The notes beneath the pieces were generated by a model. That model did not search any database. It was not told the DNA's origin and saw nothing but the letters and a program-made list of their open reading frames with translations. Positions 1 to 39,316 of a stretch of DNA of 64,000 bases are shown here, piece after piece. This DNA is from a virus. Both the position numbers and the translations under genes were made by a program. The first letter of the stretch is position 1. Each line of letters starts with the position of its first letter. The DNA lies in IMG/VR virus record IMGVR_UViG_3300042898_004347, positions 32,001-96,000 of that record; one strand, given 5' to 3'.

Positions 1-1176
1 AATTCCGGTAATGATGCCGTTCGTAATTTGAACAACACTGTTACCGCATGTCACAGTTCCAGATGCGCCATTTCCGCATCTGACAGATCCATTTAGATCT
101 ATTGTTGCATAGTTTAAATTGATTCCATTGGATGTGAGACTCACAATTGTTCCATCCGTATTGTTTGCGGCTAAATTTCCATTCGATTTAAGTTTATTAG
201 TGTGAGTATTTGCAATTGTTTTTGATGAATTTATACCTCGCTCAGCATCAATGTGATCGGACTGCGCTATCTTTGATTGGCGATGACCGTGAATATATTC
301 GGTTTTATCTCCCCGCACCTCGAGATGATAATTTCCTCCAACGTACTGCCTGAGATTGCCATCAATTGTCATGTTAACATTACCTTTGCCTCCGCCATCA
401 GTTGACGAAGCTCTTACGTGTATGTAATCATCACCAATAATTACTGTTTGATTAGATCCAACGACCGTTGTTATTTTATTTCCCTTCTTATCAATTTCTG
501 TATATGTTCCTGATTTATGATAATCAAGTAATCGTTCATGGCCCGGTGTATCATCAACTTCAAAAACATGGCCCGATTCACTTTTAAAAACGTGATTTTT
601 AGGATATTCTGGTTTTACAGTATCACCGATATTCCAATTGGTCATTTTGTATGCTTCTGGTTCTGACGCCTGTCCCGTCATGGGAGGACGCTGAGCAACT
701 GGAATGTCTGTGCCTAAATATTTTTCTCTGGACTTATACGCCTCAGATTCGGCAAATTTAGTTCTGGCCTCAAGCGGAATATCAGGAGTTCCTAATTTAG
801 CTGGAAGAGGATACTTTCCGGCGGGATCAGAAAACCCCTTTGTTTTATCCGGCTGTTGTTCCGTCATTGATGGAATTGTACCAAGAACAATTGGATCTTG
901 AGCAGATGGTCCGTCGCGGAAGAAACCAATTACCCAAGAACCGGGCAGTACTCCTGTTGCGGACATTCCAATTCCAGACATTGATGCAGAATTTACAGGA
1001 GTCATAACTGAAGCCCAGGGTAGGTTTTCTGTTTTAATGAGACCCCGATCATCTGTATGATAACCAATGCAACGAACTCTTATGCGTCCCATCTGCAAAG
1101 GATCATTCACATCTTCCACGACACCGGTGAACCAGGAGAAGACGCCACCTATAAAACTATCTGGGGAGTAACTCAT
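1..1176 (-). CDS. gp5: Baseplate hub/spike protein gp5-like (OB-fold N-terminus, no lysozyme domain); stop lies outside the window
   Basis: Not in the ORF track. Manual translation from ATG 1176: MSYSPDSFIGGVFSWFTGVVEDVNDPLQMGRIRVRCIGYH...LPWA...GSWVIGFFRDG..AQDPIVLG, the gp5 N-terminal motif; also HVFEVDDTPGHERL. Confidence 0.92.
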   Translation of the reverse strand, partial: MSYSPDSFIGGVFSWFTGVVEDVNDPLQMGRIRVRCIGYHTDDRGLIKTENLPWASVMTPVNSASMSGIGMSATGVLPGSWVIGFFRDGPSAQDPIVLGTIPSMTEQQPDKTKGFSDPAGKYPLPAKLGTPDIPLEARTKFAESEAYKSREKYLGTDIPVAQRPPMTGQASEPEAYKMTNWNIGDTVKPEYPKNHVFKSESGHVFEVDDTPGHERLLDYHKSGTYTEIDKKGNKITTVVGSNQTVIIGDDYIHVRASSTDGGGKGNVNMTIDGNLRQYVGGNYHLEVRGDKTEYIHGHRQSKIAQSDHIDAERGINSSKTIANTHTNKLKSNGNLAANNTDGTIVSLTSNGINLNYATIDLNGSVRCGNGASGTVTCGNSVVQITNGIITGI

Positions 1177-2618
1177 ACACTTAAAACATCCATCGAATAT
1201 GCATCGGTATTTGCACGAACCTCGCAATAATATTGTTGTTCAAATTTATGAACGACCGAAGTGATTAAATAGTATCCGCTAAACATTGCCTGATTCTCAA
1301 CGATCTCCTTTTTATTTGGATCTTTTGTTGGCTTAAAGGTTGATCTTAATAACAATTTGACAATTTTACCCGAATGAAAATCAAGGTCACCCGTAATAGT
1401 AAAGTCATGGGATATAAATTGCATGTTTTCGTTCACTGAATTTGCAATATTTATAAATTTATTTTTTGTTGCACTATGGTAATTGTTACTGGTTCCAAGT
1501 GATTTTTCGTTTAACGAAATGTAATTGATATTGGCATTACTAAAATCTGAAAGTGCTGATCCAATTCCAGTTTCGAATAACTTTTCCTGTGCATTAATAA
1601 TTTTACCATCGAATCCGGATGTAGCTTCATTTATTTTATTAAACGGTTCGCGTGTTTCCGGAGTAAATGAATCGGAAAGCGAAGAATTTGCTCCAATTTT
1701 TGCCATCTTTGGAAATTCTACACGATAATCAAAATCAAGAGTTTCAATTTTTTTTGACGAAATATTTACATAAACAGATTTTGAAGCATAGGCTCCATTT
1801 ATACTAGACAAATATTTTGATATTCCGACGTTTGAAGCCAGATTTAAAATGCGGCCCTTTCTCTGATTAAAATCTTCAGTGGTTCCAACCTTGTACTGAA
1901 AGAACTGTCCATCAGTATATTCATTAATATTATTCTCTTTGGCTTTTGCATTAATATCCATATGCGATTCGATATGAATTTTTCCATCAAGCGTTTCATA
2001 GCAATACCATGGGCTTCCATGAGAATCATAGCAGCGGCGAAGGACCCACATAATAGCGTCTATTGGGTTTAAATTTGGAACAATAAATGAAACTAACGGT
2101 GAAGACTGTTTACTCTGAACAATATCTAATGTATTTACTTTTAAATCCTCGGTTAACGTAGTCTTAATAAAATCAGCCATAGTGCCACTAAATGCCCGTG
2201 AAATCTTTTTAAGTTTTGATAGGTAAATATGTCGAGATACTCCCTTTATAGTATAAACCTGAATTCTATTCTCCATTTTTCCATAGAGCGGATATTCAGT
2301 AACAAAAAACATTCTACTTATTGTTTTAGGCTTTTGATTAGCATCGTCTAGCTGACTACCCTGTGTTAAATTTACTGTAATGGTTTCTTGGCCTGTTAAT
2401 TCGCCAATTTCGAAAAAATTAATAGAATCTTTTATACTAATTGAAAGAATCAATCCTGCATGATATATGCTCTCGGTAATTGAAAAATCAGTTTGCATTG
2501 AAGTCAAATCATATGTTTGACCATAATGATTTTCAAGAACAATACTTGTAATTCGATATGCTTCCGGAACGTGAAGTTCGTTAGCATCTCTTTTTTCTAA
2601 ATTTGCCGTCTTACTCAT
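1173..2618 (-). CDS. Baseplate hub protein (gp27-like)
   Basis: 481 aa between gp53 and gp5; ITESIY..L.LSISIKDS at the N-terminus and SGYYLITSVVHKF at the C-terminus, typical of hub proteins. Confidence 0.7.
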   Translation of the reverse strand: MSKTANLEKRDANELHVPEAYRITSIVLENHYGQTYDLTSMQTDFSITESIYHAGLILSISIKDSINFFEIGELTGQETITVNLTQGSQLDDANQKPKTISRMFFVTEYPLYGKMENRIQVYTIKGVSRHIYLSKLKKISRAFSGTMADFIKTTLTEDLKVNTLDIVQSKQSSPLVSFIVPNLNPIDAIMWVLRRCYDSHGSPWYCYETLDGKIHIESHMDINAKAKENNINEYTDGQFFQYKVGTTEDFNQRKGRILNLASNVGISKYLSSINGAYASKSVYVNISSKKIETLDFDYRVEFPKMAKIGANSSLSDSFTPETREPFNKINEATSGFDGKIINAQEKLFETGIGSALSDFSNANINYISLNEKSLGTSNNYHSATKNKFINIANSVNENMQFISHDFTITGDLDFHSGKIVKLLLRSTFKPTKDPNKKEIVENQAMFSGYYLITSVVHKFEQQYYCEVRANTDAYSMDVLSV

Positions 2619-15033: not shown

Positions 15034-17073
15034 TCACTTTGAAGTAGCTCTAAAAACTCCATCCCAGGATGGTCCAGGATCCGCTTTTTCTAGGTCAGCA
15101 ATGCGTTCCAGCATCATGTCGTAGTAATCATTGAGGAAATCCATGTGAGCTTTTAAATCAACTCCCAATTCTTTTGCTTTTTTCCAATTGCGCTCCCGAT
15201 AGTAAGTCATGAAACTGTCATGGGATTTGCTGTAGACGCGTGTGCCCTTTTCAAATACCGTGTAAATCTTCACACCTTCTTTCTTACCCTTTACCGCGAT
15301 GCAATCTAGTTCTAGCGTGGGATACACGTCCTTCACATATTCTCGCGTGATGGGACCAATTACAAATTTGACGCCGTAGGGCTTCGACTGACCTTCCAAG
15401 CGAGAGGCAAGATTCACCGAATCTCCGAGGCAGGTATAATCGAACCGTTGAGTCGAGCCCATATTACCCACAACAACGGTACCAGTATTCACGCCGAGAC
15501 CCATTCCGAATGCAGGAATACCTTCCTTCGTCACCTCATCGTTGAATGCTTTCAGACTTCCTAGCATTGTGAGACCCGTTTCAACCGCATGAAGAGCATG
15601 GTCCTTGTCGTCGAGTGGTGCGTTCCAGAAAGCCATCTGTGCATCACCAATGTACTTGTCCAGCGTTCCCTGACTATCCAGAATGGCCTGTGTCATTGCC
15701 GTCATATACCGATTCATAATCTTTGTGAGACCCTGAACGTCCTTGCCATAGTGTTCCGAGATTGCGGTGAAGCCACGAACATCTGTAAACATGATTGATA
15801 GCTCTCGAGACTCGCCTCCCAACTGTAAGAGGTCGGGATTCTTTTGCAGTTTCTCAACCATGGCTGGAGATAGGTACGTTCCGAACTGTTTCTTGATCTG
15901 CTGCTTGAGTTTAAACTCCATGACGAACCGCATGAAGAGAGAACCAGTCCATACAAGGGATGCGGTACCCACAACCCAGGTATAGTCGGCAAGGAGTCCT
16001 TTATCGAATAAATGAAAGCCGTAATACACTGGAAGGCATACGGCAATAAGATAGATGCCAAGATTTAAGGCGTAGCCCAAAAAGGAGATTGCTCCGATTA
16101 GAATAAGTGCTGCACCCACACCAATTGCAATCTCGTAAAGATCGAACTCTGCTGGGCGTTCAAGTCGGTTACCATCGAGCAACATCTGAAGTGTTTGGAG
16201 ACTGAGTTCGTGTCCGTACGCCGTACCCAATGGAGTCGCAACGGTATTTGCAAGCCCCTCGGCCGTAAGAGCGATCACTACAATCTTGTCCTTCACGTGC
16301 CATTCATCATCGGTGTATGGAACTGATTTAAAGGTATATTTAAAGTTGATCCAGACGCGACCATTGCCATCAGTCTTAATTGGCGGCGTACCAGGGACGC
16401 GAATGGCAGACACTCCCGATTCTGTTACCTTAACCTGAAAGCTGGGTTGGTTACCAAAGACACGGAGGATTTCCAGTGGCATTGTGGGATACTTTTCTTT
16501 TTCAATCTGAATCATGAGCGGTAATCTACGCACCACGCCATCAAGCTCTGGAGCCGTCAATAACATACCCACGCCCGTGGACGCCTCACCAATCTCTTTG
16601 AGTGGTCCGATTGCAGCTGGGTAATCAAATAGCCAGTCATCCGTCGTGCCGCCGATTGTTGCAACGCCTCTTGGAATTGGAACGCCTTTACCCTTTAATG
16701 ACGCCGATTGACCCGTAATTACAGGAGCCTGACTCAGCATCTCAATAAATTCCTTATCTCCGCCAAGACGGTCGGGTTCCGCGAAAATAATAGGTAGCAC
16801 AACACCGGTGGCGCCTGACTCCATGGCTTTTCTGATTGCGCCTGCCAGTTCGGTACGCTTCCATGGCCACTGTCCGTTCTTTTCCAGTGCCTTTTCATCA
16901 ATTTCCACGATCACAATGTTATCCGATACCACCTTGTCCTGCTTTCTCTGATAGTAATCCAGACCTTTGAGACGCATTACCTCGATTGGATACGGGTTTG
17001 CAATGCGGAGACCCACGGCAACTGTGAGAAGCATAAGACCAACAAGAAGGATTCTGAATGTGTGTTTGTTCAT
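15034..17073 (-). CDS. CHASE2-domain class III adenylate cyclase
   Basis: IVIVEIDE..L...GQWPWKR, DGVVRRLPL, three TM helices, FTDVRGFT, DKYIGDAQMAFW, DYTCLGDSVNLASRLE. Confidence 0.95.
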   Translation of the reverse strand: MNKHTFRILLVGLMLLTVAVGLRIANPYPIEVMRLKGLDYYQRKQDKVVSDNIVIVEIDEKALEKNGQWPWKRTELAGAIRKAMESGATGVVLPIIFAEPDRLGGDKEFIEMLSQAPVITGQSASLKGKGVPIPRGVATIGGTTDDWLFDYPAAIGPLKEIGEASTGVGMLLTAPELDGVVRRLPLMIQIEKEKYPTMPLEILRVFGNQPSFQVKVTESGVSAIRVPGTPPIKTDGNGRVWINFKYTFKSVPYTDDEWHVKDKIVVIALTAEGLANTVATPLGTAYGHELSLQTLQMLLDGNRLERPAEFDLYEIAIGVGAALILIGAISFLGYALNLGIYLIAVCLPVYYGFHLFDKGLLADYTWVVGTASLVWTGSLFMRFVMEFKLKQQIKKQFGTYLSPAMVEKLQKNPDLLQLGGESRELSIMFTDVRGFTAISEHYGKDVQGLTKIMNRYMTAMTQAILDSQGTLDKYIGDAQMAFWNAPLDDKDHALHAVETGLTMLGSLKAFNDEVTKEGIPAFGMGLGVNTGTVVVGNMGSTQRFDYTCLGDSVNLASRLEGQSKPYGVKFVIGPITREYVKDVYPTLELDCIAVKGKKEGVKIYTVFEKGTRVYSKSHDSFMTYYRERNWKKAKELGVDLKAHMDFLNDYYDMMLERIADLEKADPGPSWDGVFRATSK

Positions 17074-18224
17074 TTCTGAATGATGTTTACTTTAAGTTTG
17101 TCTCCGAAGTTGAGTGGATATACCGTAGTTCCATTCGAGTCGGTAATCTTAAACGTTGCGCTTGTGTCTGCTTTTAATTTATAGTGAATGACTCCTTTGG
17201 ATGTGGAAAGATTCATTATTGCGTTTGTGCCGTCCGTAGTAAATCCATTATTGACCGTTGACGTCACAATGAGCGATGGTAATGGACTTGCCGCTGTTGC
17301 AACCGTGACCTCTGGATTTTTAAAAATGACTTCTGCTACGGCCTGAAGTAGCTCGGGCTGCATTGCCTTTACATCGATGATGGCTGTTTTAGTTTCTTCC
17401 ACAGGCTTTTCTTCAGCCTTAACCTGAGTAGACGTACTAGGTTCAACCTGAGCAACCGCAGTAGCGGAATCACTCTTGCCGCTTGATTTTTTGTTTGGTT
17501 TATCATCGGCCGATTCGGATGTGTTTGCCTGTGTCTGCTTTTTGGCTTCCTTTACCGCACTTGTGACGGGTTTCGGAGTCTCAACAAGAATCAGGTTATT
17601 GATTTTGCTTTCATCTTGAAAGTTAAGTATGACGGGATTTGTAGGAGCGGACTGCATTGACGCAATAAAGGTCGCCTGATATGCCTGAGTCATAAGGACA
17701 CTTCCTGCTACATTTGACACCTCGATAACTCCCACGGTTCCAGGAGTTGCGCTATATTCGGGCCGCGAAGGAAGTAGAATGATGAGACTCTTACCATCCT
17801 CGGAGACGGTCATTGAAAAATCCGTACCACGAACAGAAATCTTTGCGGTAGGAGTTTGAACCTTAATGTTCTCTCTACTATTCTTTGCAATCATACCCGA
17901 TGCATAACGAACGGTACCGAATGCCGTCTTCATTGAGACCTTACCCTTACCGCTCGCAGGATCATACACGAATTCATCAATCTTGAGCTTCGAGAACTCA
18001 GTGATCTGCATTACTGTATGATCCTCGAATTCAATGGATACCCGAGCCTTTAAGGTCTCGATGGTATCATCCTGCTCTATCTCCGTGCCAACCTTACCTT
18101 CTAACTTATCCTTGCCACGAACAATCTGAGTGGGACCAGTAACCTCGGTCAGTTTCCCGACCGAGGCACTGGCTTCAGATATAAAAATAACCGCAAACAA
18201 AAACAGTGCTGCGGCTATGCGCAT
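17070..18224 (-). CDS. Exported FecR-domain protein
   Basis: Signal peptide; IEFEDHT..ITEFSKLKIDEFVYDP, VQTPTAKISVRGTDF. Confidence 0.88.
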   Translation of the reverse strand: MRIAAALFLFAVIFISEASASVGKLTEVTGPTQIVRGKDKLEGKVGTEIEQDDTIETLKARVSIEFEDHTVMQITEFSKLKIDEFVYDPASGKGKVSMKTAFGTVRYASGMIAKNSRENIKVQTPTAKISVRGTDFSMTVSEDGKSLIILLPSRPEYSATPGTVGVIEVSNVAGSVLMTQAYQATFIASMQSAPTNPVILNFQDESKINNLILVETPKPVTSAVKEAKKQTQANTSESADDKPNKKSSGKSDSATAVAQVEPSTSTQVKAEEKPVEETKTAIIDVKAMQPELLQAVAEVIFKNPEVTVATAASPLPSLIVTSTVNNGFTTDGTNAIMNLSTSKGVIHYKLKADTSATFKITDSNGTTVYPLNFGDKLKVNIIQK

Positions 18225-30175: not shown

Positions 30176-30251
30176 TGGTGGACCAGACAGGGATCGAACC
30201 TGCGACCTTCTGCTTGCAAAGCAGCTTCTCTACCAACTGAGATACTAGCCC
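30176..30251 (-). tRNA. tRNA-Ala(TGC)
   Basis: Cloverleaf, loop TTTGCAA, encoded CCA. Confidence 0.93.
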
Positions 30252-30258
30252 GAATTAA

Positions 30259-30927
30259 TTAGAACTTGAGGGTAACAGCCGAACGGAGACCAACCGTGGT
30301 CTTGTCAAGATTACCGTCCTGGAGGACAACAAATCCAGCCGAGAGGACTTTCCATGAAGCATCAAGTGAACCGCCGTAGTAGGCATTGGTGTACTTGATT
30401 TCCTTGATGGTACGTGGGAGAGCATCATTTGCGTCGGTATAACCGGCAAATACTGCACCCGTGAGACCGCAGTTCTTACCAAACTTTACAGCCTGGGAGA
30501 ATTTAGCTTCAAGGTTTGAAAGGTCAGATTCAACATCGTAACGACCAGTAACGGACAATGGTCCTTTACCGACCGAAACGAATGGACGGAAGTGTCCATT
30601 TGAATCCTTACCTGGGCTATTCAACATCGAATACTCGGAGCCAACTTTTACGTTAGCAAGAGTCGAGAAGAATGTGTAACCACCAAGGAATTTGACCTGA
30701 TAGAAATCAACAGAATCAATACCGTTGAGATGGGTATCAGCTGATGCTCCAACATTAAAACTACCGATGGAATAGTCGACTGCAGTCACAGCGGATCCTT
30801 TTGCATCAGTAACTTTGCCAAAGTCAATTCCCTTTTCCTGGTAACCTACTGTAAGGGTTCCTGCCGCAAAAGCGGAAACGGAAGCAGTTAGAATTGCGAG
30901 TAACGTTAGTTTGATTAGTTTGTTCAT
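30259..30927 (-). CDS. Outer-membrane beta-barrel protein
   Basis: Sec signal peptide ending AFA, alternating amphipathic strands, C-terminal Phe (VTLKF). Confidence 0.72.
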   Translation of the reverse strand: MNKLIKLTLLAILTASVSAFAAGTLTVGYQEKGIDFGKVTDAKGSAVTAVDYSIGSFNVGASADTHLNGIDSVDFYQVKFLGGYTFFSTLANVKVGSEYSMLNSPGKDSNGHFRPFVSVGKGPLSVTGRYDVESDLSNLEAKFSQAVKFGKNCGLTGAVFAGYTDANDALPRTIKEIKYTNAYYGGSLDASWKVLSAGFVVLQDGNLDKTTVGLRSAVTLKF

Positions 30928-31013
30928 ACTTTACTATTTATCTTATTTTTCTCCACTTGAGTATTGCCCTGACCCTTTGGGCGGTGGAGTAATGCTCAGG
31001 TCAAACCGAAAAA

Positions 31014-31109
31014 TGAATCACGTGTAAGGCTCGAACTTACATCTTCAGTTTCGTTCAGGATGTACTTGTCCTGTAACACTGAAATCTTATCCTTTAGACG
31101 AACGTGATT
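31014..31109 (-). ncRNA. tRNA-like RNA with expanded anticodon arm
   Basis: Acceptor AATCACG/CGTGATT, D arm, T arm GTAAG-TTCGAGC-CTTAC; 30 nt in place of the 7-nt anticodon loop. Confidence 0.6.
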
Positions 31110-31337
31110 TTTACTACTTTGTGATCTTCTATAGCCTCGTATTACTGATCTATTTTTAGTTGCACCGCGTTTCGTCGAAGCGCGCGAGGTTCAGTTGACA
31201 AGAAGCTTTTGTGCTATCCATGGTTTCGCTAAATTTCCTAGGGGATTATCCCACTAGGAAAGTCAAAATTAAATGTAAAAGAACTGAATTAACTATCTCT
31301 ATCCTAACAAAGCTGCATCAAAAGTAAACAACAAAAA

Positions 31338-31574
31338 TCACTTTTTGTGCAATTCAATGAGTTTATCTAAAATGTAAAGAGCCAGTTGAAAACTTCCAGC
31401 ATCGATTGCTGCAATTAGTTCTTTTTTCAAATTGTGGACCTTTTCAGCGTTGGTCCACGCATCCATGCTATACGCAAGGGAATTCGGTGAGAGTGGAGAG
31501 TTATTTGCGTATGCCGTAGCAACCGTCTTCATGGACGGATTCATTGCCATTGGCTGTACAGGTGCTATCTCCAT
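31338..31574 (-). CDS. Hypothetical protein
   Basis: 78 aa; CATAAATA 5 nt upstream. Confidence 0.6.
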   Translation of the reverse strand: MEIAPVQPMAMNPSMKTVATAYANNSPLSPNSLAYSMDAWTNAEKVHNLKKELIAAIDAGSFQLALYILDKLIELHKK

Positions 31575-31606
31575 CTATCTATTTATGGTATCGTAACACT
31601 TAGAGG

Positions 31607-31683
31607 TGGTGCTCATTGTAGGACTCGAACCTACGACCTATTGAATGTAAATCAATTGCTCTAACCAACTGAGCTAAACGAGC
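31607..31683 (-). tRNA. tRNA-Val(TAC)
   Basis: Cloverleaf, loop TTTACAT, CCA. Confidence 0.9.
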
Positions 31684-31695
31684 ATAAATAACACT

Positions 31696-31875
31696 ATGAA
31701 ACTCAAATTTTGCGATTATACCTTTACCCTAATGTCGAATGGTGATATTGTCATGGATGACGCAATCACTGCAGATAAACTTGAAGTTAAATCTGGGGAT
31801 TTATTTGAAACTGTTATTACCCCGGATGGGGTCGTAGTATTTCAAAAGAAAAATGGTGGACCTGAGGGGAGTTGA
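31696..31875 (+). CDS. Small protein, possibly AbrB/MazE-like
   Basis: MKLKFCDYTFTLMSNGDIVMDDAITADKLEVKSGDLFETVITPDGVVVFQKK; CATAAATA at 31683-31690. Confidence 0.55.
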   Translation: MKLKFCDYTFTLMSNGDIVMDDAITADKLEVKSGDLFETVITPDGVVVFQKKNGGPEGS

Positions 31876-32222
31876 ACCCCTGTGTTCAGTACTTTTCCGA
31901 TAATTTTCTACAAGCTTAGTATTACTTAACAGTCCCCATGATACCGTAATACTGTATCATGATTGTTTTAGTGAGGATACGCATCTTGTACACCACTTCA
32001 AGATGGTCTCGCTTTTATGACGAGTGTAACACTTAGCGAGAATCCGTGTTATCTACTCGATCACAGTTTTTAGGCTGCGAGTGGCATTTCTTCGGCGAAA
32101 CCGAAGAAGTTGCTGAGGGCTTTATTAATGCCGTTTAACTTTTTACCAGTTTTTAAAAGGTGTCCGGAGAACCTTGCTTGCTTACTATAAGTCTATTACT
32201 GAGTCGAATCCAGTACAGGCCC
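31854..32222 (-). ncRNA. ssrA: tmRNA
   Basis: 5' GGGCCTGTACTGGATTCGAC, 3' GGGGTTCAACTCCCCTCAGGTCCACCA, internal tag frame GINKALSNFFGFAEEMPLAA*. Confidence 0.95.
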
Positions 32223-32317
32223 ATAAATTTAAAAGAACGAAATTCAATTGTTTAATCCGTCCACGTTCACCGCGTAGCCCAAATCCCTTTTTGAAAAAGG
32301 ATACAGTTAAACAAAAT

Positions 32318-32391
32318 TGGATGCTGGGGATGGAATTGAACCATCAGCTCCGCGTTATGAGCGCGACGAGTTACCGTTACTCTACCCGGCA
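32318..32391 (-). tRNA. tRNA-Met(CAT), initiator-like
   Basis: Loop CTCATAA, D arm AGAGTAACGGTAACTCG, T loop TTCAATT, CCA. Confidence 0.85.
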
Positions 32392-32399
32392 ATAAAATG

Positions 32400-32805
32400 A
32401 ATTTGGGAGGGTTAATGATTACCTCCATCTAACAATTGTGTTTTCAGTTATTCAGTCATATGGTGCCGTCGCACCTTAATAGTCCGCTTGTCATTGTATT
32501 TCAGGCTTACAAGACTATACCTCTGGTTGCTTAGGTTGGCCGACCCAAGTTTTCAGCGTAGTACCTTACTTACTTACACATTGTAGAACTGAGTGATGTT
32601 CTTCACACCACCCATGCGTTAGCCCCATTAGAAAGGCTTTCTTCCGCCACAAAAATTTCTCTCATGTTACGGCAACGTCAGCATACAGTCCCGACCAGTG
32701 CCTATTCCACTATTATCGAGATTTTACAACTGTTGCAGACCGTGGTGACAATAGGTTCGTGAAACCAGTTGCCGCATGAGAGTCCAAGGTGATCAAACCT
32801 TGGAA
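32400..32805 (-). ncRNA. Candidate large structured RNA(s)
   Basis: No ORF of 60 aa or more; follows an early promoter and boxA-like motif; several long-range helices such as CTCTCATG-CGGCAAC / GTTGCCG-CATGAGAG. Confidence 0.55.
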
Positions 32806-32879
32806 AGTATTTAAAAGAACGAAATTGACTATGGTACAATCATACACATGTCACATCAAAAGTAAACAACAAAATGTGA

Positions 32880-33503
32880 TTATGGCATATATGTTTTACA
32901 TTCATCTAATGATAAAATTATCTTTAAATTGGGCATAAGTTTTTTAATAACATCTAATTTTGTTTTTTGAACATTCGCCGCGTGCGGATTTTTAGGATCG
33001 AGATATATGTCATGATCCGGCAGATAAAAATCAGGAAAATAATTATGAGTTCTACCATCAATCATTACATATGAAATAGGAACTTTGGGACGAATCCAAT
33101 TGATTCCTATTTCATCCAACCGCATTGCTAGAATTTCTTCCCAGGATGAATCTAAAGTGACAATAGTTCCATCTTTCTTTGTATATTTTCTTATAGATCT
33201 AACTAAACGTCTATGTTTTGATGCTAGTGCTTTTTGACTCATTAATGCCTTACTTTCAGGGCTATGAGTTTTTCCTAAATTTGGACTTGAATAATCGACA
33301 TTATCATATTTCCCATCAGCATGAGCTTTTTTAATTCCAGCAATACGCTTTGCTTTAGCTTCAGGAGTGCACATTTGAGTGCAGTTGTTACTCATTTGAT
33401 ACGAAGATCGTTTTGGGTTTTCTTTACACCACCTACTATGATTTGCTTTATTAGCAGTTGATAGACCTTCAAAATCCTTTTTACAGTATTTACATTTAAA
33501 CAT
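32880..33503 (-). CDS. Free-standing homing-type endonuclease (Zn finger, NUMOD3-like, PD-(D/E)XK)
   Basis: CKYC..HSRWC, GKTHSPESKALMS, DSSWE, NYFPDFYLPDHDIYLDPKN; AT-rich. Confidence 0.8.
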   Translation of the reverse strand: MFKCKYCKKDFEGLSTANKANHSRWCKENPKRSSYQMSNNCTQMCTPEAKAKRIAGIKKAHADGKYDNVDYSSPNLGKTHSPESKALMSQKALASKHRRLVRSIRKYTKKDGTIVTLDSSWEEILAMRLDEIGINWIRPKVPISYVMIDGRTHNYFPDFYLPDHDIYLDPKNPHAANVQKTKLDVIKKLMPNLKIILSLDECKTYMP

Positions 33504-33516
33504 ATTTTATAGAATT

Positions 33517-33591
33517 TGGTGCGTCTACCAAGACTCGAACTTGGAACAGGAGCTTAGAAGACTCTTATGATAGCCGTTTCACCATAGACGC
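33517..33591 (-). tRNA. tRNA-Arg(TCT)
   Basis: Loop CTTCTAA, CCA. Confidence 0.9.
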
Positions 33592-33613
33592 TTATATGTT
33601 TATTTATAACAAT

Positions 33614-33648
33614 GAAGATTTCTGTCCTATCCGTTGAACGATCGAGGC
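33614..33648 (-). pseudogene. 5' half of a tRNA, probably Arg(TCT)
   Basis: GCCTCGATCGTTCAACGGATAGGACAGAAATCTTC, broken in the anticodon loop and followed by TATAAATA. Confidence 0.7.
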
Positions 33649-33652
33649 AGAA

Positions 33653-33727
33653 TGGAGCGGAAAAAGAGACTCGAACTCTCAACATCTTCGTTGGCAACGA
33701 AGTGCTCTACCATTGAGCTATTTCCGC
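33653..33727 (-). tRNA. tRNA-Gly(GCC)
   Basis: Loop TTGCCAA, TCCA end. Confidence 0.95.
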
Positions 33728-33748
33728 GTGGAGTATAAATACATTCCT

Positions 33749-34168
33749 ATGTACCAATATTCTTGCAAAATTAATAAAGTGATTGACGGCGATACTGTTG
33801 AGATCGACCTCGACCTCGGATTCAATATCGTTCTTGCTGGCCAACGAGTCAGAATGGTTGGAGTAGACACTCCTGAGTCCCGTACTGCTGATAAAGAAGA
33901 AAAGGCTCGAGGCCTCTTATCAAAGAAGAAACTTGCTGAAAAACTTCCAGCGGGTTCCTATCAAAAGATCAATACTCAGAAACCCGGAGCAAATGACGAT
34001 AAGTTTGGCCGTATTCTCGGTATCTTCATCCTGGAAGATGGAACAAATGTTAACGAGTGGCTCATCGAGAACAATTACGCGGTAAAATATCTTGGCGAGA
34101 ATAAAGAACTCGTCCAAGAAGCCCATGCAGCAAATAAGAAAATTCTTATTCGCCGTGGCGAACTTTAA
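33749..34168 (+). CDS. Thermonuclease (SNase-like)
   Basis: KVIDGDTVEIDLDLGF, RVRMVGVDTPESRT, DKFGRILG; TATAAATA at 33734-33741. Confidence 0.9.
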   Translation: MYQYSCKINKVIDGDTVEIDLDLGFNIVLAGQRVRMVGVDTPESRTADKEEKARGLLSKKKLAEKLPAGSYQKINTQKPGANDDKFGRILGIFILEDGTNVNEWLIENNYAVKYLGENKELVQEAHAANKKILIRRGEL

Positions 34169-34171
34169 GCC

Positions 34172-34420
34172 TTAGTAGCCCACAGATACCATGCGGCAAG
34201 ATGTCGCAGCGGTAATTGTAGAAAGGGGTGACTTTTCGAGATAGAGAACTTCACCCGGAGCAATCGTCACTGTGGTCGTGGCGGCGTCTGCAGTCGTAAC
34301 CGTAAGAAGTACCGCTGTGCCGTTGTTATTATAAACGCGTACGAGTGAGGCGGATCCGATAGTTGATGCTGTTGAAACTGCAGCGTCTGTTCCCTGAAGA
34401 TTGAGAATTGTTGAAATCAT
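34172..34420 (-). CDS. Small late, beta-rich protein
   Basis: TATAAATA at 34446-34453; ASLVRVYNN motif. Confidence 0.7.
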   Translation of the reverse strand: MISTILNLQGTDAAVSTASTIGSASLVRVYNNNGTAVLLTVTTADAATTTVTIAPGEVLYLEKSPLSTITAATSCRMVSVGY

Positions 34421-34457
34421 TGAATTTTAGGATTAAGGTGTAATCTATTTATATGAA

Positions 34458-34535
34458 TGGTACCCACGGTGGGAGTCGAACCCACAGTTGAACACATTTT
34501 AAGTGTGTTGTGTCTACCAATTCCACCACGAGGGC
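34458..34535 (-). tRNA. tRNA-Leu(TAA), short variable arm
   Basis: Loop CTTAAAA, D arm GGTGGAATTGGTAGACAC, CCA. Confidence 0.9.
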
Positions 34536-34545
34536 ATAACATAAA

Positions 34546-34620
34546 TGGTACCACTACGGGGAATCGAACCCCGATTACTTGGATGAAAACCAAGTGTCCT
34601 AACCGTTAGACGATAGCGGC
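34546..34620 (-). tRNA. tRNA-Glu(TTC)
   Basis: Loop TTTTCAT, CCA. Confidence 0.93.
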
Positions 34621-34625
34621 AAAAT

Positions 34626-34699
34626 TGGCTCCCCGACCAGGTTTCGAACCTAGACTAGATGAGTCAAAGTCATCTGTGCTACCATTACACAATCAGGGA
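34626..34699 (-). tRNA. tRNA-Gln(TTG)
   Basis: Loop CTTTGAC, CCA. Confidence 0.93.
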
Positions 34700-34702
34700 A
34701 AA

Positions 34703-34779
34703 TGGTGGACCCGGTGGGATTTTAACCCACGATCTAGGGATTATGAGTCCCTTGCTTTAGGACACTAAGCTACAAGTCC
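34703..34779 (-). tRNA. tRNA with CAT anticodon (Ile2 or Met)
   Basis: Loop CTCATAA; atypical T loop TTAAAAT; CCA. Confidence 0.85.
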
Positions 34780-34785
34780 TTAAAA

Positions 34786-34860
34786 TGGCTGGCAAAGTAG
34801 GACTCGAACCTACAACCCTCGCATTAACAGTGCGATGCTCTGCCATTGAGCTATATGCCA
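34786..34860 (-). tRNA. tRNA-Asn(GTT)
   Basis: Loop CTGTTAA, CCA. Confidence 0.93.
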
Positions 34861-34864
34861 AAAA

Positions 34865-35095
34865 TTATCCGTCGTTGCCAATGGCACTTACGGGACAGCC
34901 CTCGAGGGCTTCCATACACATGTCAATGCCTGCTTGTGTTGTGGGTTGAGTATGTACATATGAAAAGCCGCCATCTTCTTCACGAGTAAAGAAGTCTGGA
35001 GCAGTTTCACGGCAAAGGTCGCAGTCGATACACTGAGTGTCGACATAAAACTTCCCTGCTGCGTTCTGTGAATATCTATCCGTATTGTTTGCCAT
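34865..35095 (-). CDS. Monocluster ferredoxin
   Basis: GKFYVDTQCIDCDLCRETAP...CMEALEGCPVSAIG; start MANNTDRY. Confidence 0.92.
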   Translation of the reverse strand: MANNTDRYSQNAAGKFYVDTQCIDCDLCRETAPDFFTREEDGGFSYVHTQPTTQAGIDMCMEALEGCPVSAIGNDG

Positions 35096-35117
35096 AATGT
35101 ATTTACGATTTGATAAT

Positions 35118-35194
35118 TGGTCGGGGCGATAGGATTCGAACCTACGACCTTCTGGTCCCAAACCAGACGCTCTACCAAGCTGAGCTACACCCCG
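35118..35194 (-). tRNA. tRNA-Pro(TGG)
   Basis: Loop TTTGGGA, CCA. Confidence 0.95.
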
Positions 35195-35199
35195 AGAAA

Positions 35200-35319
35200 T
35201 TACTTCTTCAGTTTAGACTGAACGACTTCAACTGCAGCATCAACCTTTGCTTTGTTTTTGCGAGCAACAAGAAGACCAGCAACGAAACCGACAATGAGTG
35301 CGAGGAGTAATGAGAACAT
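35200..35319 (-). CDS. 39-aa single-TM late protein
   Basis: MFSLLLALIVGFVAGLLVARKNKAKVDAAVEVVQSKLKK; TATAAATA at 35353-35360. Confidence 0.7.
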   Translation of the reverse strand: MFSLLLALIVGFVAGLLVARKNKAKVDAAVEVVQSKLKK

Positions 35320-35367
35320 ATGTTTATTGAGTTGAGGTTAACCGTACATATCTATTTATATGTAAAA

Positions 35368-35445
35368 TGGCGGGATGGACGGGACTCGAACCCGCGACCT
35401 TCTGCGTGACAGGCAGACGCTCTAAACCAGCTGAGCTACCACCCC
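35368..35445 (-). tRNA. tRNA-Asp(GTC)
   Basis: Loop CTGTCAC, CCA. Confidence 0.95.
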
Positions 35446-35909
35446 TAAAGTTTCACACAGCCATTATTGCCATTGATGTAAATCAAGAGGACTACTGTGT
35501 ATGTTAAATTATTTGAATAGATGTAGCTTTGCTTTATATGACCACACTTCAGCGAGTTTCTTATTTACGCATAAGCTCCAACACGTTTAATGTTTCCCAA
35601 TAAACGTACTGTTATGAACTCAGAGGCTTTTCGTTACTTCCATGTTTTTCCGCTGACGGTTAGACCCCGTGCTCGTACCGAAGATGGAAACAATCTTCTA
35701 CATTCCGAGCTGCTATTCAAAATTGGATCCTTCTGCCATACAAGTCTTCCAGAACATTTCCAGAAGATGAATGCACTTGTATGCGTTACACTCTTAAACC
35801 CCCTAAAGGAACGCAACCTTTTAAATATGTGATTGCCCAGTTTCTTAGCAACATGGAGCTTTACCTTAGCGCCGGCGAATGTAACGGTCTGCATAAACAC
35901 AGAAGAAAT

Positions 35910-35984
35910 TGGCACGGATGGAGGGAATCGCACCCTCATAAGGCAGTTTTGGAGACTGCTGCACTACTAATGTACCACATCCGT
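35910..35984 (-). tRNA. tRNA-Trp(CCA), divergent D and T loops
   Basis: Loop CTCCAAA; D loop lacks GG; T loop TGCGATT. Confidence 0.8.
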
Positions 35985-36066
35985 AAAAATTAAAGCAGCG
36001 GTAACCTAATCCGCGGATGGACGAACCGATTCCAGGGTTCAAACATGACCCATACTTTAAAATAAA

Positions 36067-36144
36067 TGGGGCGATCAACGGGGCTTGAACCCGTAACCCC
36101 GAAAATCACAATCTCGTGCTCTGGCCAATTGAGCTATGATCGCC
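36067..36144 (-). tRNA. tRNA-His(GTG)
   Basis: Loop TTGTGAT; G-1:C73; CCA. Confidence 0.92.
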
Positions 36145-36149
36145 GTAAA

Positions 36150-36226
36150 TGGAGCGCCAGACAGGGATCGAACCTGCATGTGACTGTTTTGCAAACAGAA
36201 GTTTAGCCTTTCAACAACACTGGCGC
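36150..36226 (-). tRNA. tRNA-Cys(GCA), divergent
   Basis: Loop TTGCAAA, U73 discriminator, CCA. Confidence 0.78.
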
Positions 36227-36232
36227 TTAAAA

Positions 36233-36308
36233 TGGTAGTAGCGGTGGGAATTGAACCCACATAAAAGAGCTTATGAAACTCTTGCCTTGACCAATCGACC
36301 TCGCTACT
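36233..36308 (-). tRNA. tRNA-Met(CAT)
   Basis: Loop TTCATAA, CCA. Confidence 0.85.
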
Positions 36309-36431
36309 GTAAATTAATTATTCGGTCGGAACTTCAATCGAAGGTCTTATCGACCCGCGCGGCTCACTAAGCCGTCCTTCACGTCGTTAAGTGGTACGAC
36401 AACACGGACTTCTACCGTTAACCGAATAAAA

Positions 36432-36507
36432 TGGTGGGAGCTTCTGGTATCGATCCAGATTCTTGCCGTCTTCAGCGGCACGTGAGCACCTGCTTCACCA
36501 AACTCCC
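36432..36507 (-). tRNA. tRNA-Phe(GAA)
   Basis: Loop CTGAAGA, CCA. Confidence 0.85.
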
Positions 36508-36512
36508 TAAAG

Positions 36513-36588
36513 TGGTAGACCCGGAAGGATTCGAACCTTCAATACAACGTTCGTAGCGTTGCGTGATAATCCGTTTCACTACGGGTCT
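36513..36588 (-). tRNA. tRNA-Arg(ACG)
   Basis: Loop CTACGAA, CCA. Confidence 0.92.
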
Positions 36589-36695
36589 ATAAAAATGAGT
36601 AGTACCGATTGTTCCGAGCACGGTTACCTGTTGTTCAACATACTGAATGATAACACCGACTCCTGTTTTACGAACAACTGGATTTCTACTCAAAA

Positions 36696-36781
36696 TGGTG
36701 GGCACGCTTGGACTCGAACCAAGGGTTATCCGAAGAGGGGACATTTACAGTGTCCTGCAATAGCCGCTATGCGACGCGCCC
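36696..36781 (-). tRNA. tRNA-Tyr(GTA)
   Basis: Loop CTGTAAA, long variable arm, CCA. Confidence 0.92.
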
Positions 36782-36837
36782 GAAAAATTGTCATTTGAGT
36801 CAACCTCAATTTCGCCAATGACGTGGCGTTTGCAAAA

Positions 36838-36912
36838 TGGAGCGGTATCCGGGTAACGATCCCAGAACTCAAGTTTGGAAAACTCGCGTGTATCCATTAA
36901 CACCTATACCGC
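36838..36912 (-). tRNA. tRNA-Gly(TCC)
   Basis: Loop TTTCCAA, TCCA end. Confidence 0.88.
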
Positions 36913-36917
36913 AAAAC

Positions 36918-36991
36918 TGGTGCCTTCGACAAGAATCGAACTTGTGACTAGCGCTTATCAAGCGCTGGTTATACCGTTTAACTACAAAGGC
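36918..36991 (-). tRNA. tRNA-Ile(GAT)
   Basis: Loop TTGATAA, CCA; 5' end overlaps the endonuclease stop codon. Confidence 0.9.
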
Positions 36992-37583
36992 TTTTAATAT
37001 ATTCCACATTTATATCTTTATTTAAAAGAATGATTATTTTTACAGAATTCTGTTTTGCTGCTAATTGTATTTTTTCTGCATCCAAAATGGCTTTATAATC
37101 GTTTTTAGGATCTAAATATAAATCATATTCTGTTAGATAGAAATCAGCAAAATATCTTTTATTGTTGTATTTTAATGATTTCGGTCGAATCCATTTTATA
37201 TTCAATTCATTTAATAATGAACTACATCTTAATTCATATGTACTCTGTAGTGTAACTTCATTACCATATGAATCATTTACTTTAAATTTTTTACTTCTTC
37301 CAGCCAAAGGTTGGTAACCACCTAAACCTCGATCTTTTGCTATTTTTGATAATAGTGATTTAGTTTCTTGAGTATGCGCAGTTCCTGTACCGGGACCAGT
37401 TTTTGGTCTAAAACATCTAACATCGGACAATACAGTTTTACCTTTATTCCATGCAACCCTCTCTACTTTAGGTTTAATGACTTTAGGTTTATCGTGCCAC
37501 TTTAAATGACGATTGAATGCGAAAAGCGATACGGCATTTCCACATTTAGGACAAATAGATGTTGTTGTTTTACCTTTGGGCAT
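36978..37583 (-). CDS. Free-standing homing-type endonuclease, paralogue of 32880-33503
   Basis: Start MPKGKTT; CPKC..HLKWH, AWNKGKT, HTQETKSLLS, QSTYE, YFADFYLTEYDLYLDPKN; AT-rich; TATAAATA at 37589-37596. Confidence 0.8.
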   Translation of the reverse strand: MPKGKTTTSICPKCGNAVSLFAFNRHLKWHDKPKVIKPKVERVAWNKGKTVLSDVRCFRPKTGPGTGTAHTQETKSLLSKIAKDRGLGGYQPLAGRSKKFKVNDSYGNEVTLQSTYELRCSSLLNELNIKWIRPKSLKYNNKRYFADFYLTEYDLYLDPKNDYKAILDAEKIQLAAKQNSVKIIILLNKDINVEYIKSLCS

Positions 37584-37602
37584 TAATCTATTTATAGAGG
37601 TA

Positions 37603-37634
37603 GACGATGCTCTAACCAACTGAGCTACTAGACC
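37603..37634 (-). pseudogene. 5' half of a tRNA, possibly Ile(GAT)
   Basis: GGTCTAGTAGCTCAGTTGGTTAGAGCATCGTC ends just before the anticodon loop. Confidence 0.72.
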
Positions 37635-37639
37635 GAAAA

Positions 37640-37729
37640 TGGCGGAAATAGAAGGATTCGAACCTTCGGGGCTTTTGAGGACCCGAGACTTTAGCAAAGT
37701 CTTGCCTTAAACCACTCGGCCATATTTCC
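37640..37729 (-). tRNA. tRNA-Ser(GCT)
   Basis: Loop TTGCTAA, long variable arm, CCA. Confidence 0.93.
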
Positions 37730-37734
37730 TAAAT

Positions 37735-37824
37735 TGGAGGAAGGGGTGGGATTCGAACCCACGGTCGTTTTTAGGCGACTCAAGTTTTCAAGACTAGCGC
37801 CTTAAACCACTCAGCCACCCTTCC
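37735..37824 (-). tRNA. tRNA-Ser(TGA)
   Basis: Loop CTTGAAA, long variable arm, CCA. Confidence 0.93.
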
Positions 37825-37830
37825 TTAAAA

Positions 37831-37906
37831 TGGAGCCCTCGGACGGGATCGAACCGACGACAACCAGTTTACAAAACTGGTGCTCTACCAACTGAGCTAC
37901 AAGGGC
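37831..37906 (-). tRNA. tRNA-Thr(TGT)
   Basis: Loop TTTGTAA, CCA. Confidence 0.95.
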
Positions 37907-38224
37907 GAAATTGAATCCCACCATGCACCTAGAAGCATTGCTGCTTTCACGGATGAACCCGACATTCAGTGCAGGTAGGAAAATTGGAAAGGTAACGATA
38001 GCTCAGTGTTCTGGCTGCATATCGGTGCAGACGGCATTTCGTTTTTATCTAACACTTAGACCTTAAAAGAGCCCGGCAATTTATTTAAAGACGTCCGGGG
38101 CTCGTCTATTTTTATTTGAAAAAAGAACTAATTTTACCCCTCTCAGCTTGTGCTGGTTTGGATACCCGTTATCGGACGTTTGGACTCCTTAAAGCCGGAG
38201 TCTGGCAGTGAAACTGAAAGTGAT

Positions 38225-38455: not shown

Positions 38456-39154
38456 TTAGTGCATAAAAAGATATGGTTTCCATTCCTCGCGGATACCCAT
38501 ATCCTCGGGGATTTGAACGCCGATCTGGACACGGTTCTTTGGAACCACTTCCTTACCATTAATGTCAAAATACGGGAAAATGTTGTCCTTGGCAGCATTA
38601 CAGTCGCGGCAGGCAAGAACAAGGTTGAACCCGTCATTGGTACCACCCTTTGACTTGGGATGCACGTGATCCTTGGTGGCAACGCAGAAAGGTATCTTTT
38701 TGAGGCAGTACTGACAGGTGCCCTTATAGATGCTGTAAAGACTCCGAAGTGAGGTTTGCTGACCACGACGAACAGTATGTCCGAAGTGAGTAGTGCAGAC
38801 AACGATGGTCGGAATTGCCCATTGCTTTTCTTCGCCACTGATACGGTCCGGAGCGGAACGCAGACATGGCTGGTTGTCAAAGAGTTCTATGGTGTTCTTC
38901 GACCACGAATAACCGTCATTGTCCTCACGACCGTCCCATGGAATTGTGTTACCACTCGCGTCGATACCGTGAGCCCTACCATTCATCATGTGACGCATGC
39001 ACGCACGGGCCGTGAAGAAGGCATAGGCTTGGTAGGAACCGTCGAGCACCAGTGTGGTACGCGCAGAAGCATCAACAGGAGTCAATACATTAACCTGTAA
39101 TTGATTTAACAACTGAAGTGAAGCCTTTTCGTGGTACGTTGTATTTGCGAGCAT
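38456..39154 (-). CDS. HNH endonuclease (McrA-like)
   Basis: CQYC...TKDHVHPKSKGG...NLVLACRDCNAAK; start uncertain. Confidence 0.88.
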   Translation of the reverse strand: MLANTTYHEKASLQLLNQLQVNVLTPVDASARTTLVLDGSYQAYAFFTARACMRHMMNGRAHGIDASGNTIPWDGREDNDGYSWSKNTIELFDNQPCLRSAPDRISGEEKQWAIPTIVVCTTHFGHTVRRGQQTSLRSLYSIYKGTCQYCLKKIPFCVATKDHVHPKSKGGTNDGFNLVLACRDCNAAKDNIFPYFDINGKEVVPKNRVQIGVQIPEDMGIREEWKPYLFMH

Positions 39155-39316
39155 TAGAGTAAGATTCACCGTTGAGCACTTGGCAGTGACCAGCGGTTTT
39201 GTGGTCCCAGATCATGATACCAAAGCGGTTGACCTTGGTCTCACGTGGGACAAAGTTGGGGTCGGGTAGAATACCAGACCGAATAAGACTTTGAATGATT
39301 TTATCGTTGGACATTT

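Follow-up and report, generated by a model that had tools for sequence, protein, structure and literature searches.

A probable homing-endonuclease cassette that overwrites a phage tRNA-Ile gene and brings a complete tRNA-Ile of its own

We analysed 64,000 nt (hereafter the window) of a 140-kb IMG/VR virus record, 84% complete, and found a tRNA-Ile(GAU) gene that is broken off in its anticodon loop and followed by a nuclease gene whose end overlaps a second, complete tRNA-Ile(GAU). We consider it likely that this stretch represents a free-standing homing-endonuclease cassette, one that replaces the tRNA it targets with a resistant copy. The window and a closely related array form a filled/empty site pair, the encoded protein has a nuclease fold with conserved catalytic residues, and the architecture recurs throughout the family of this nuclease.

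The cassette lies in an array of 24 tRNA and tmRNA genes called by ARAGORN (window positions 30176-37906), and all of its features are on the minus strand. The preceding gene, tRNA-Ser(gct), ends at 37640 (minus strand) and is followed, after a 5-nt spacer, by the dead 5' remnant of the original tRNA-Ile(GAU), that is, its nucleotides 1-33 (37602..37634, minus strand), which comprise the acceptor strand, the full canonical D arm, the 5' strand of the anticodon stem and one loop base. When the remnant was aligned locally to tRNA 5' halves, the best score reached z = 9.1 against shuffles. The first-pass annotation of this DNA had described a tRNA half truncated at the anticodon stem; the truncation is real, but tRNA-like sequence stops one nucleotide later, at 37602, which is the first base of the anticodon loop. 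Five bases beyond the break, a T4-type late-promoter box, TATAAATA (37589..37596, minus strand), marks the left end of the inserted cassette, and five more bases lead to the ATG at 37583 of a nuclease gene of 201 aa plus stop (36978..37583, minus strand). Its stop codon lies within the next tRNA, the complete replacement tRNA-Ile(GAU) (36918..36991, minus strand), which was called by ARAGORN and scored 65.3 bits with the Rfam tRNA model. The TAA at 36980..36978 corresponds to positions 12-14 of this tRNA, in its D loop, which yields a 14-nt overlap and bears out the earlier reading that the nuclease stop codon sits inside the 5' end of a divergent, complete tRNA-Ile(GAT). The cassette tRNA is the sole tRNA-Ile(GAU) of the array. 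The G+C content of the cassette is 23-33%, as compared with 45-50% in the flanks.

The phage itself is T4-like, as indicated by a homologue of the baseplate protein gp53. The octamer TATAAATA, the T4 late-promoter consensus, is found 17 times in the window, where 2.9 occurrences would be expected, a sixfold enrichment, and boxes similar to it follow the break in most relatives of the cassette. The 201-aa ORF has no Shine-Dalgarno sequence; since, in addition, only 5 nt separate the box from the ATG, it is uncertain whether this particular copy is expressed, and the gene may be read from a leaderless message or poorly expressed.

The uninterrupted form of the target gene was uncovered by scanning viral contigs for exact matches to the 32-nt half tRNA. 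A single contig matched, IMG/VR UViG 3300034105_003378 (locus L001), which carries a closely related array. There, at L001 5887-5963, an intact tRNA-Ile(gat) stands right after tRNA-Ser(gct), from which it is separated by 5 nt as in the window, and over its first 33 nt it is identical to the window remnant. Because of this 33/33 identity at the same array position, the half can be assigned to tRNA-Ile(GAU), an identity that had previously been inferred, and L001 can be regarded as the uninterrupted allele; the empty-site comparison suggested on first pass thus places an intact gene where the window has a half gene plus cassette. The two arrays are 95-99% identical in the left flank and 87% in the right flank, and differ further at several other places. 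By blastn, the left block of homology ends at 37602, and the right block starts at 36887, within the anticodon arm of tRNA-Gly(tcc). The whole tract differing from the empty site (36888..37601, minus strand) therefore measures 714 nt, versus 153 nt in L001, where it comprises the last 44 nt of tRNA-Ile, 84 nt of spacer and 25 nt from the start of tRNA-Gly. Nowhere in the window does a 3' half of the former tRNA-Ile survive. The cassette is accordingly present in one and absent from the other of two close relatives, the latter having an intact target at the empty site, and the full identity of the remnant to the intact allele argues for a recent gain in the window rather than a loss in L001.

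The right-hand crossover lies in the anticodon arm of tRNA-Gly(UCC) (36838..36912, minus strand), the 5' part of which falls within the replaced tract and is not homologous to the L001 gene. This tRNA-Gly is itself unusual: it has an odd D arm, similar to that found in L045/L046, scores only 38 bits with Rfam while still folding as a cloverleaf, and has a T loop that reads ATCGTTA in place of TTCGAAT, as if positions 54 and 58 had been exchanged. This tRNA may be a crossover chimera, or else a variant that escapes nucleases reading the T arm, such as SegB. On the other side, just upstream of the array, there is an HNH endonuclease gene (38456-39169, minus strand) with a 92% identical copy in L001, which is hence not polymorphic. 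L001 also contains a family cassette of its own (1097-1812, minus strand), made up of a half tRNA, TATAAATA, a 199-aa nuclease and a tRNA-Thr(ggt) that overlaps the stop codon; its TATAAATA box and 5-nt spacer are the same as in the window, from which tRNA-Thr(ggt) is missing.

Searching 5.8 billion proteins returned 370 homologues at E up to 0.001, all unnamed and essentially without Pfam domains, and contig P0001 was found to encode a 98% identical nuclease. The AlphaFold model has a mean pLDDT of 85, exceeding 90 over residues 100-201, and it reveals, together with structural matches, a C-terminal PD-(D/E)XK nuclease domain (residues 97-201; 36981..37295, minus strand). This domain matched TnsA (Z 8.4), I-Bth0305I (Z 8.1), Bax1 (Z 8.0) and Vsr (Z 8.0) in a wide structural search, and a match to I-Ssp6803I was also recovered (Z 4.8). 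The matches given by Foldseek were all PD-(D/E)XK nucleases, none of them, by Foldseek alone, at E up to 0.001. At the N-terminus, residues 11-30 (37494..37553, minus strand) correspond to a C2H2-like zinc finger of the pattern C-x2-C-x11-H-x3-H, as supported by conservation, a pLDDT of 90-94 and weak profile matches to C2H2 fingers. In an alignment of 56 sequences, E117, D147 and K160 are invariant, and D158, C11, C14 and H26 nearly so.

Profile comparisons pointed in the direction of T7 endonuclease I (PDB 1m0d), with which a three-sequence profile aligned at E 0.08, superimposing the S..E, PD and ExK motifs. In Pfam, the endonuclease I family (PF05367) scored 23.8 bits with the paralogous nuclease of the window, below the cut-off of 29.1, and was not listed for the 201-aa protein, while NUMOD3 reached 11.7 bits with the 201-aa protein and 20.0 bits with the paralog, against a cut-off of 20.4; a GIY-YIG domain gave no Pfam match at E up to 1. 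PHROGs returned unnamed families plus others termed 'endonuclease' and 'Holliday junction resolvase'. From the model and the conserved residues, it is plausible that the ORF encodes an active DNA nuclease with a separate DNA-binding head, like modular homing endonucleases.

The source record holds only two members of this nuclease family. The second one is part of a paralogous cassette (32880..33648, minus strand), delimited by tblastn and sequence inspection, with a half tRNA, TATAAATA, tRNA-Arg(UCU) and a 207-aa nuclease (33503..32880) that is 33% identical to the 201-aa protein (tblastn, E 4e-16). The paralogy of the two endonucleases had been recognised from the letters alone, and the fold can now be specified as PD-(D/E)XK with a zinc finger. 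Gene order differs in this cassette, in which the half tRNA, TATAAATA and tRNA-Arg(tct) all precede the nuclease, as in L008/L009. A staphylococcal-nuclease-like gene (33713-34168, plus strand) lies opposite to the array strand and has a TATAAATA box of its own (33734-33741, plus strand); the L001 homologue is on the array strand, so that this gene looks like an inversion adjoining the tRNA-Arg cassette. Downstream of the paralogous nuclease, an ORF-free, G+C-richer segment (32396-32675, minus strand) matched manA-RNA with 19 bits, far below threshold. Other features recorded in the window are a phage tmRNA within the tRNA array (31854-32222, minus strand), a weak tRNA between tRNA-His and tRNA-Met (36155-36224, minus strand; Rfam 32.4 bits, not called by ARAGORN) and, at 15034-18224 (minus strand), a gene for a 679-aa CHASE2 plus adenylate/guanylate cyclase protein with an adjacent one for a FecR-domain protein.

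We then surveyed the genomic surroundings of the family in 19 viral loci, 7 contexts obtained through exact-protein look-ups and 80 metagenomic loci, which together encode 86 distinct proteins. Complete tRNA genes were called with ARAGORN, and remnants were scored by local alignment to 576 tRNA 5' halves, calibrated on shuffled controls, because Rfam reported no half tRNAs at E up to 1. Of the 86 distinct relatives, 82 have one or more tRNA genes in their locus. A same-strand tRNA starts between -60 and +40 nt from the ORF end in 52/86, the ORF ends inside a same-strand tRNA in 45/86, and a tRNA stands just upstream, which is the other gene order, in 16/86. Significant 5' tRNA-half remnants were detected at most 60 nt upstream of the module in 33/86. 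The half-plus-tRNA layout is missing in some members, among them L006, L010, L013, L098 and L103. The first-pass annotation had conjectured a general strategy from only two cassettes with different gene orders; the 52 relatives with a 3' tRNA and the 33 with a half strengthen that conjecture.

The tRNA downstream of the nuclease is most often Ile(gat), in 30 cases plus one mutated copy that ARAGORN called Asp, followed by Thr(tgt) (5), Met (4), Gly(tcc) (3), Thr(ggt) (2) and Val (2), with single instances of Arg(tct), Arg(cct), Gly(gcc), His and Ile(tat). Significant halves accompany 21-22 of the Ile cassettes, and shorter relics are visible in others, including L002, L028, L035 and L053. Breaks map to positions 32-36 of the anticodon loop, in many cases immediately after the anticodon GAT, and wherever the half still shows anticodon bases these agree with the cassette tRNA (GAT or the start of it for Ile, and likewise for Arg(tct) and Thr(tgt)). 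The association of this nuclease family with a half tRNA and a full tRNA of the same anticodon, which had been predicted for such a survey, was thus found, with matching anticodons wherever these are visible.

Cassettes are distributed sporadically over many unrelated arrays, and the neighbouring tRNAs were all different in ten Ile cassettes inspected by eye. Among nuclease pairs at least 80% identical, none occupies different array contexts and all share their context, so recent jumps between arrays are not documented in this set, and much of the family distribution could reflect vertical inheritance plus array reshuffling. The search turned up only distant relatives in cultured phages, namely Bacillus phage G gp525 and proteins of Aeromonas phage phiWae14 and Stenotrophomonas phage Bhz51. 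In the latter (L039; vB_SmaM_Bhz51, OR797040.1, 80049-80700), an unannotated family ORF lies between tRNA-Ile and tRNA-His, with its stop codon in the tRNA-His anticodon arm and no visible half upstream.

Comparison of the cassette tRNAs with the broken halves set the former apart. The window cassette tRNA is only 50% identical to the resident L001 gene, as opposed to 78-86% to the cassette tRNAs of L002, L004, L028, L031 and L036, which lie in unrelated arrays. Nuclease and cassette-tRNA distances are correlated across 22 cassettes (Mantel r = 0.33, p = 0.0005) and, modestly, across all 31 (r = 0.18, p = 0.01), whereas the correlation between half and nuclease distances was not significant (r = 0.14). 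By these sequence comparisons, the tRNA belongs to the cassette. The halves and the cassette tRNAs also differ in their D arms: this arm is canonical in 18 of 22 halves and in only 6 of 31 cassette tRNAs, and the D stem is rewritten by paired changes in 25 of the 31. Even the shortest relics keep the 3' strand of the D arm. We infer that the nuclease would read the gene from its D arm to its anticodon stem and that the cassette copy would be immune owing to its rewritten stems; the prevalence of canonical D arms in the halves, and their scarcity in cassette tRNAs, suggests how the cassette escapes its own nuclease.

Two further cases illuminate the insertion event. In L069-L072, a cassette-type tRNA-Ile, of which both halves are kept, contains a family member about 40% identical to the window nuclease: the 35 nt before this nuclease and the 33 nt after its tRNA match the two ends of the L004 cassette tRNA in full, and only 6 nt were lost, around tRNA positions 37-42 (insert at L069 1433-2240). 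The tRNA invaded in these loci has no upstream nuclease of its own. L014, of the Met type, has also kept a 3' remnant, complementary to its 5' half. Retention of the 3' half in both cases indicates that insertion into the anticodon loop comes first and that the missing 3' half in the window reflects a secondary loss or a by-product of repair. As judged from its sequence, L069 shows that a nuclease lineage may be able to retarget a formerly 'immune' tRNA.

These observations can be assembled into a putative cycle, of which cleavage, its site and specificity, homing and the immunity of the cassette tRNA are the deduced steps. Late in a mixed infection, the nuclease would cut, in or close to the anticodon loop, those tRNA-Ile(GAU) genes of co-infecting relatives that have no cassette, and repair of the break from the cassette-bearing genome would copy in the promoter, the nuclease and the resistant tRNA. 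The left crossover would fall in the 5' half common to both genomes and in the tRNA-Ser that precedes it, and the right one in downstream array sequence, which in the window would be the inside of tRNA-Gly(UCC). The recipient would gain the cassette and lose the 3' half of its own tRNA-Ile, and AUY decoding would persist because the cassette supplies a complete tRNA-Ile, leaving the phage with exactly one working tRNA-Ile(GAU). In the cassette tRNA the cloverleaf and the anticodon loop are kept while the D and anticodon stems are rewritten, which probably protects it from the nuclease, and the 14-nt overlap between ORF and tRNA would stop recombination from separating the two genes. Free-standing endonucleases can cleave far from their insertion point, so the junction in the anticodon loop is no proof of a cut there.

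The same data may be read in other ways. The nuclease and its tRNA could form a domesticated unit that benefits the phage, rather than a purely selfish homing element. Breaks in the array would then drive its tRNA genes to recombine, amplify or be exchanged, which could, for instance, help the phage to evade anticodon or tRNA nucleases of the host. SegB, which promotes amplification of tRNA genes neutralising Septu defence (PMC13096335), provides a precedent. Near confinement of the family to tRNA arrays, the long retention suggested by the shared context of all nucleases at least 80% identical, and the conservation of catalytic residues over 56 aligned members fit this reading as well. Nevertheless, benefit alone leaves the dead 5' halves, the like-for-like anticodon and the presence/absence polymorphism unexplained, and it is compatible with a homing origin rather than opposed to it; we regard it as an unlikely account in its own right. 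An accident of array evolution, in which tandem duplication or recombination left a truncated tRNA-Ile and a second copy with an unrelated ORF in between, is more improbable still. Phage tRNA arrays are mosaic, and the additional differences between the window and L001 arrays accord with such a history, but the order of half, promoter, nuclease of this family and full tRNA of the same anticodon, with the ORF ending inside the tRNA, is found again in dozens of unrelated contexts and with tRNAs for Ile, Thr, Arg, Met, Gly and Val, the breaks cluster in the anticodon loop, and L069 represents insertion into a single gene.

We give hardly any credence to a still-functional interrupted tRNA gene, with either an intron in the anticodon loop or two parts joined as RNA. 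The position of the break would suit it, and group I introns, some with homing endonucleases, occur in the anticodon loops of bacterial tRNAs (PMC3984707). However, the window contains no matching 3' half, the insert consists of an ORF and a complete tRNA, and the half shows no complementarity to the acceptor strand of the cassette tRNA. A group I intron or split tRNA was rejected, as no Rfam intron family was found in 32300-38100 and no matching 3' exon in the window. Rejected too were a transposon, as the cassette ends have no terminal inverted repeats and the TnsA match is at fold level only, and an integrase island, as the nuclease is the only ORF in the insert, the remnant is a 5' and not a 3' half, and terminal repeats are absent. 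The preferred reading therefore remains a homing cassette that replaces its target tRNA.

Its closest functional parallel is SegB of T4/T6, a free-standing GIY-YIG homing endonuclease in the phage tRNA cluster, which recognises a T-arm motif of many tRNA genes and drives the co-inheritance of neighbouring tRNA genes (PMC2330249; PMC13096335). Both are free-standing endonuclease genes inside T4-like tRNA arrays, and SegB undergoes intronless homing with co-conversion in mixed infections. SegB, though, belongs to the GIY-YIG enzymes, has its gene between other genes, leaves behind no half gene and has no fused replacement tRNA, whereas the cassette encodes a PD-(D/E)XK protein with a zinc finger, breaks one specific tRNA gene at the anticodon loop, of which a dead half stays behind, and provides a tRNA of the same anticodon that overlaps the ORF. 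I-Ssp6803I and I-Bth0305I use the PD-(D/E)XK restriction-enzyme fold for homing, as predicted for the cassette nuclease, and I-Ssp6803I targets a tRNA (fMet) gene at the anticodon region. These two enzymes are encoded in self-splicing group I introns that restore the host gene as RNA; the cassette, in contrast, has no intron and replaces the gene, and its nuclease has no detectable sequence homology to them. The best sequence-level relative of the nuclease core, at a score below the Pfam threshold, is T7 endonuclease I (PF05367), a structure-specific junction resolvase that has neither a zinc finger nor a NUMOD-like region. In fungal mitochondria, free-standing endonuclease genes insert in protein-coding genes and carry a substitute 3' end, as in Allomyces atp6. 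The cassette resembles these elements in bringing a copy of what it displaces, in a disrupt-and-replace manner, but they supply part of a protein-coding gene in frame, whereas the cassette supplies a whole RNA gene, and does so in a phage. The kind of element, a homing endonuclease, is thus known, while the tRNA-replacing strategy is apparently undescribed: full-text searches of open-access papers and preprints found no published description of it.

More tentatively, and with the odds against it, a serial arms race might shape phage tRNAs, and the overlap of stop codon and tRNA might couple nuclease output to tRNA processing. Lineages would overwrite a canonical tRNA with a D-stem-rewritten copy, which new nuclease variants would then retarget; L069-L072, with a nuclease inside a cassette-type tRNA-Ile, can be cited as such a case. 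As for the overlap, an RNase P cut at the 5' end of the tRNA would remove the stop codon and generate a non-stop nuclease message, which is why the tmRNA of the phage would be relevant. Were the arms race real, homing endonucleases would be a main reason for odd D and T arms in phage tRNAs.

Homing endonucleases are thought to invade essential genes by means of self-splicing introns or inteins, or to sit between genes. The cassette would follow a different route, in which an RNA gene is destroyed and a resistant working copy is supplied, with no intron involved. This architecture is common in uncultured T4-like and other large phages, extends to at least six tRNA isotypes and is linked to a nuclease family whose unnamed members number in the hundreds. 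If the proposed mechanism is correct, it would explain the orphan tRNA halves and oddly wired tRNAs of phage arrays, would provide a route for horizontal flow of tRNA genes between phages, and would reveal natural nucleases that tell closely similar tRNA genes apart, with predicted pairs of target and immune sequences.
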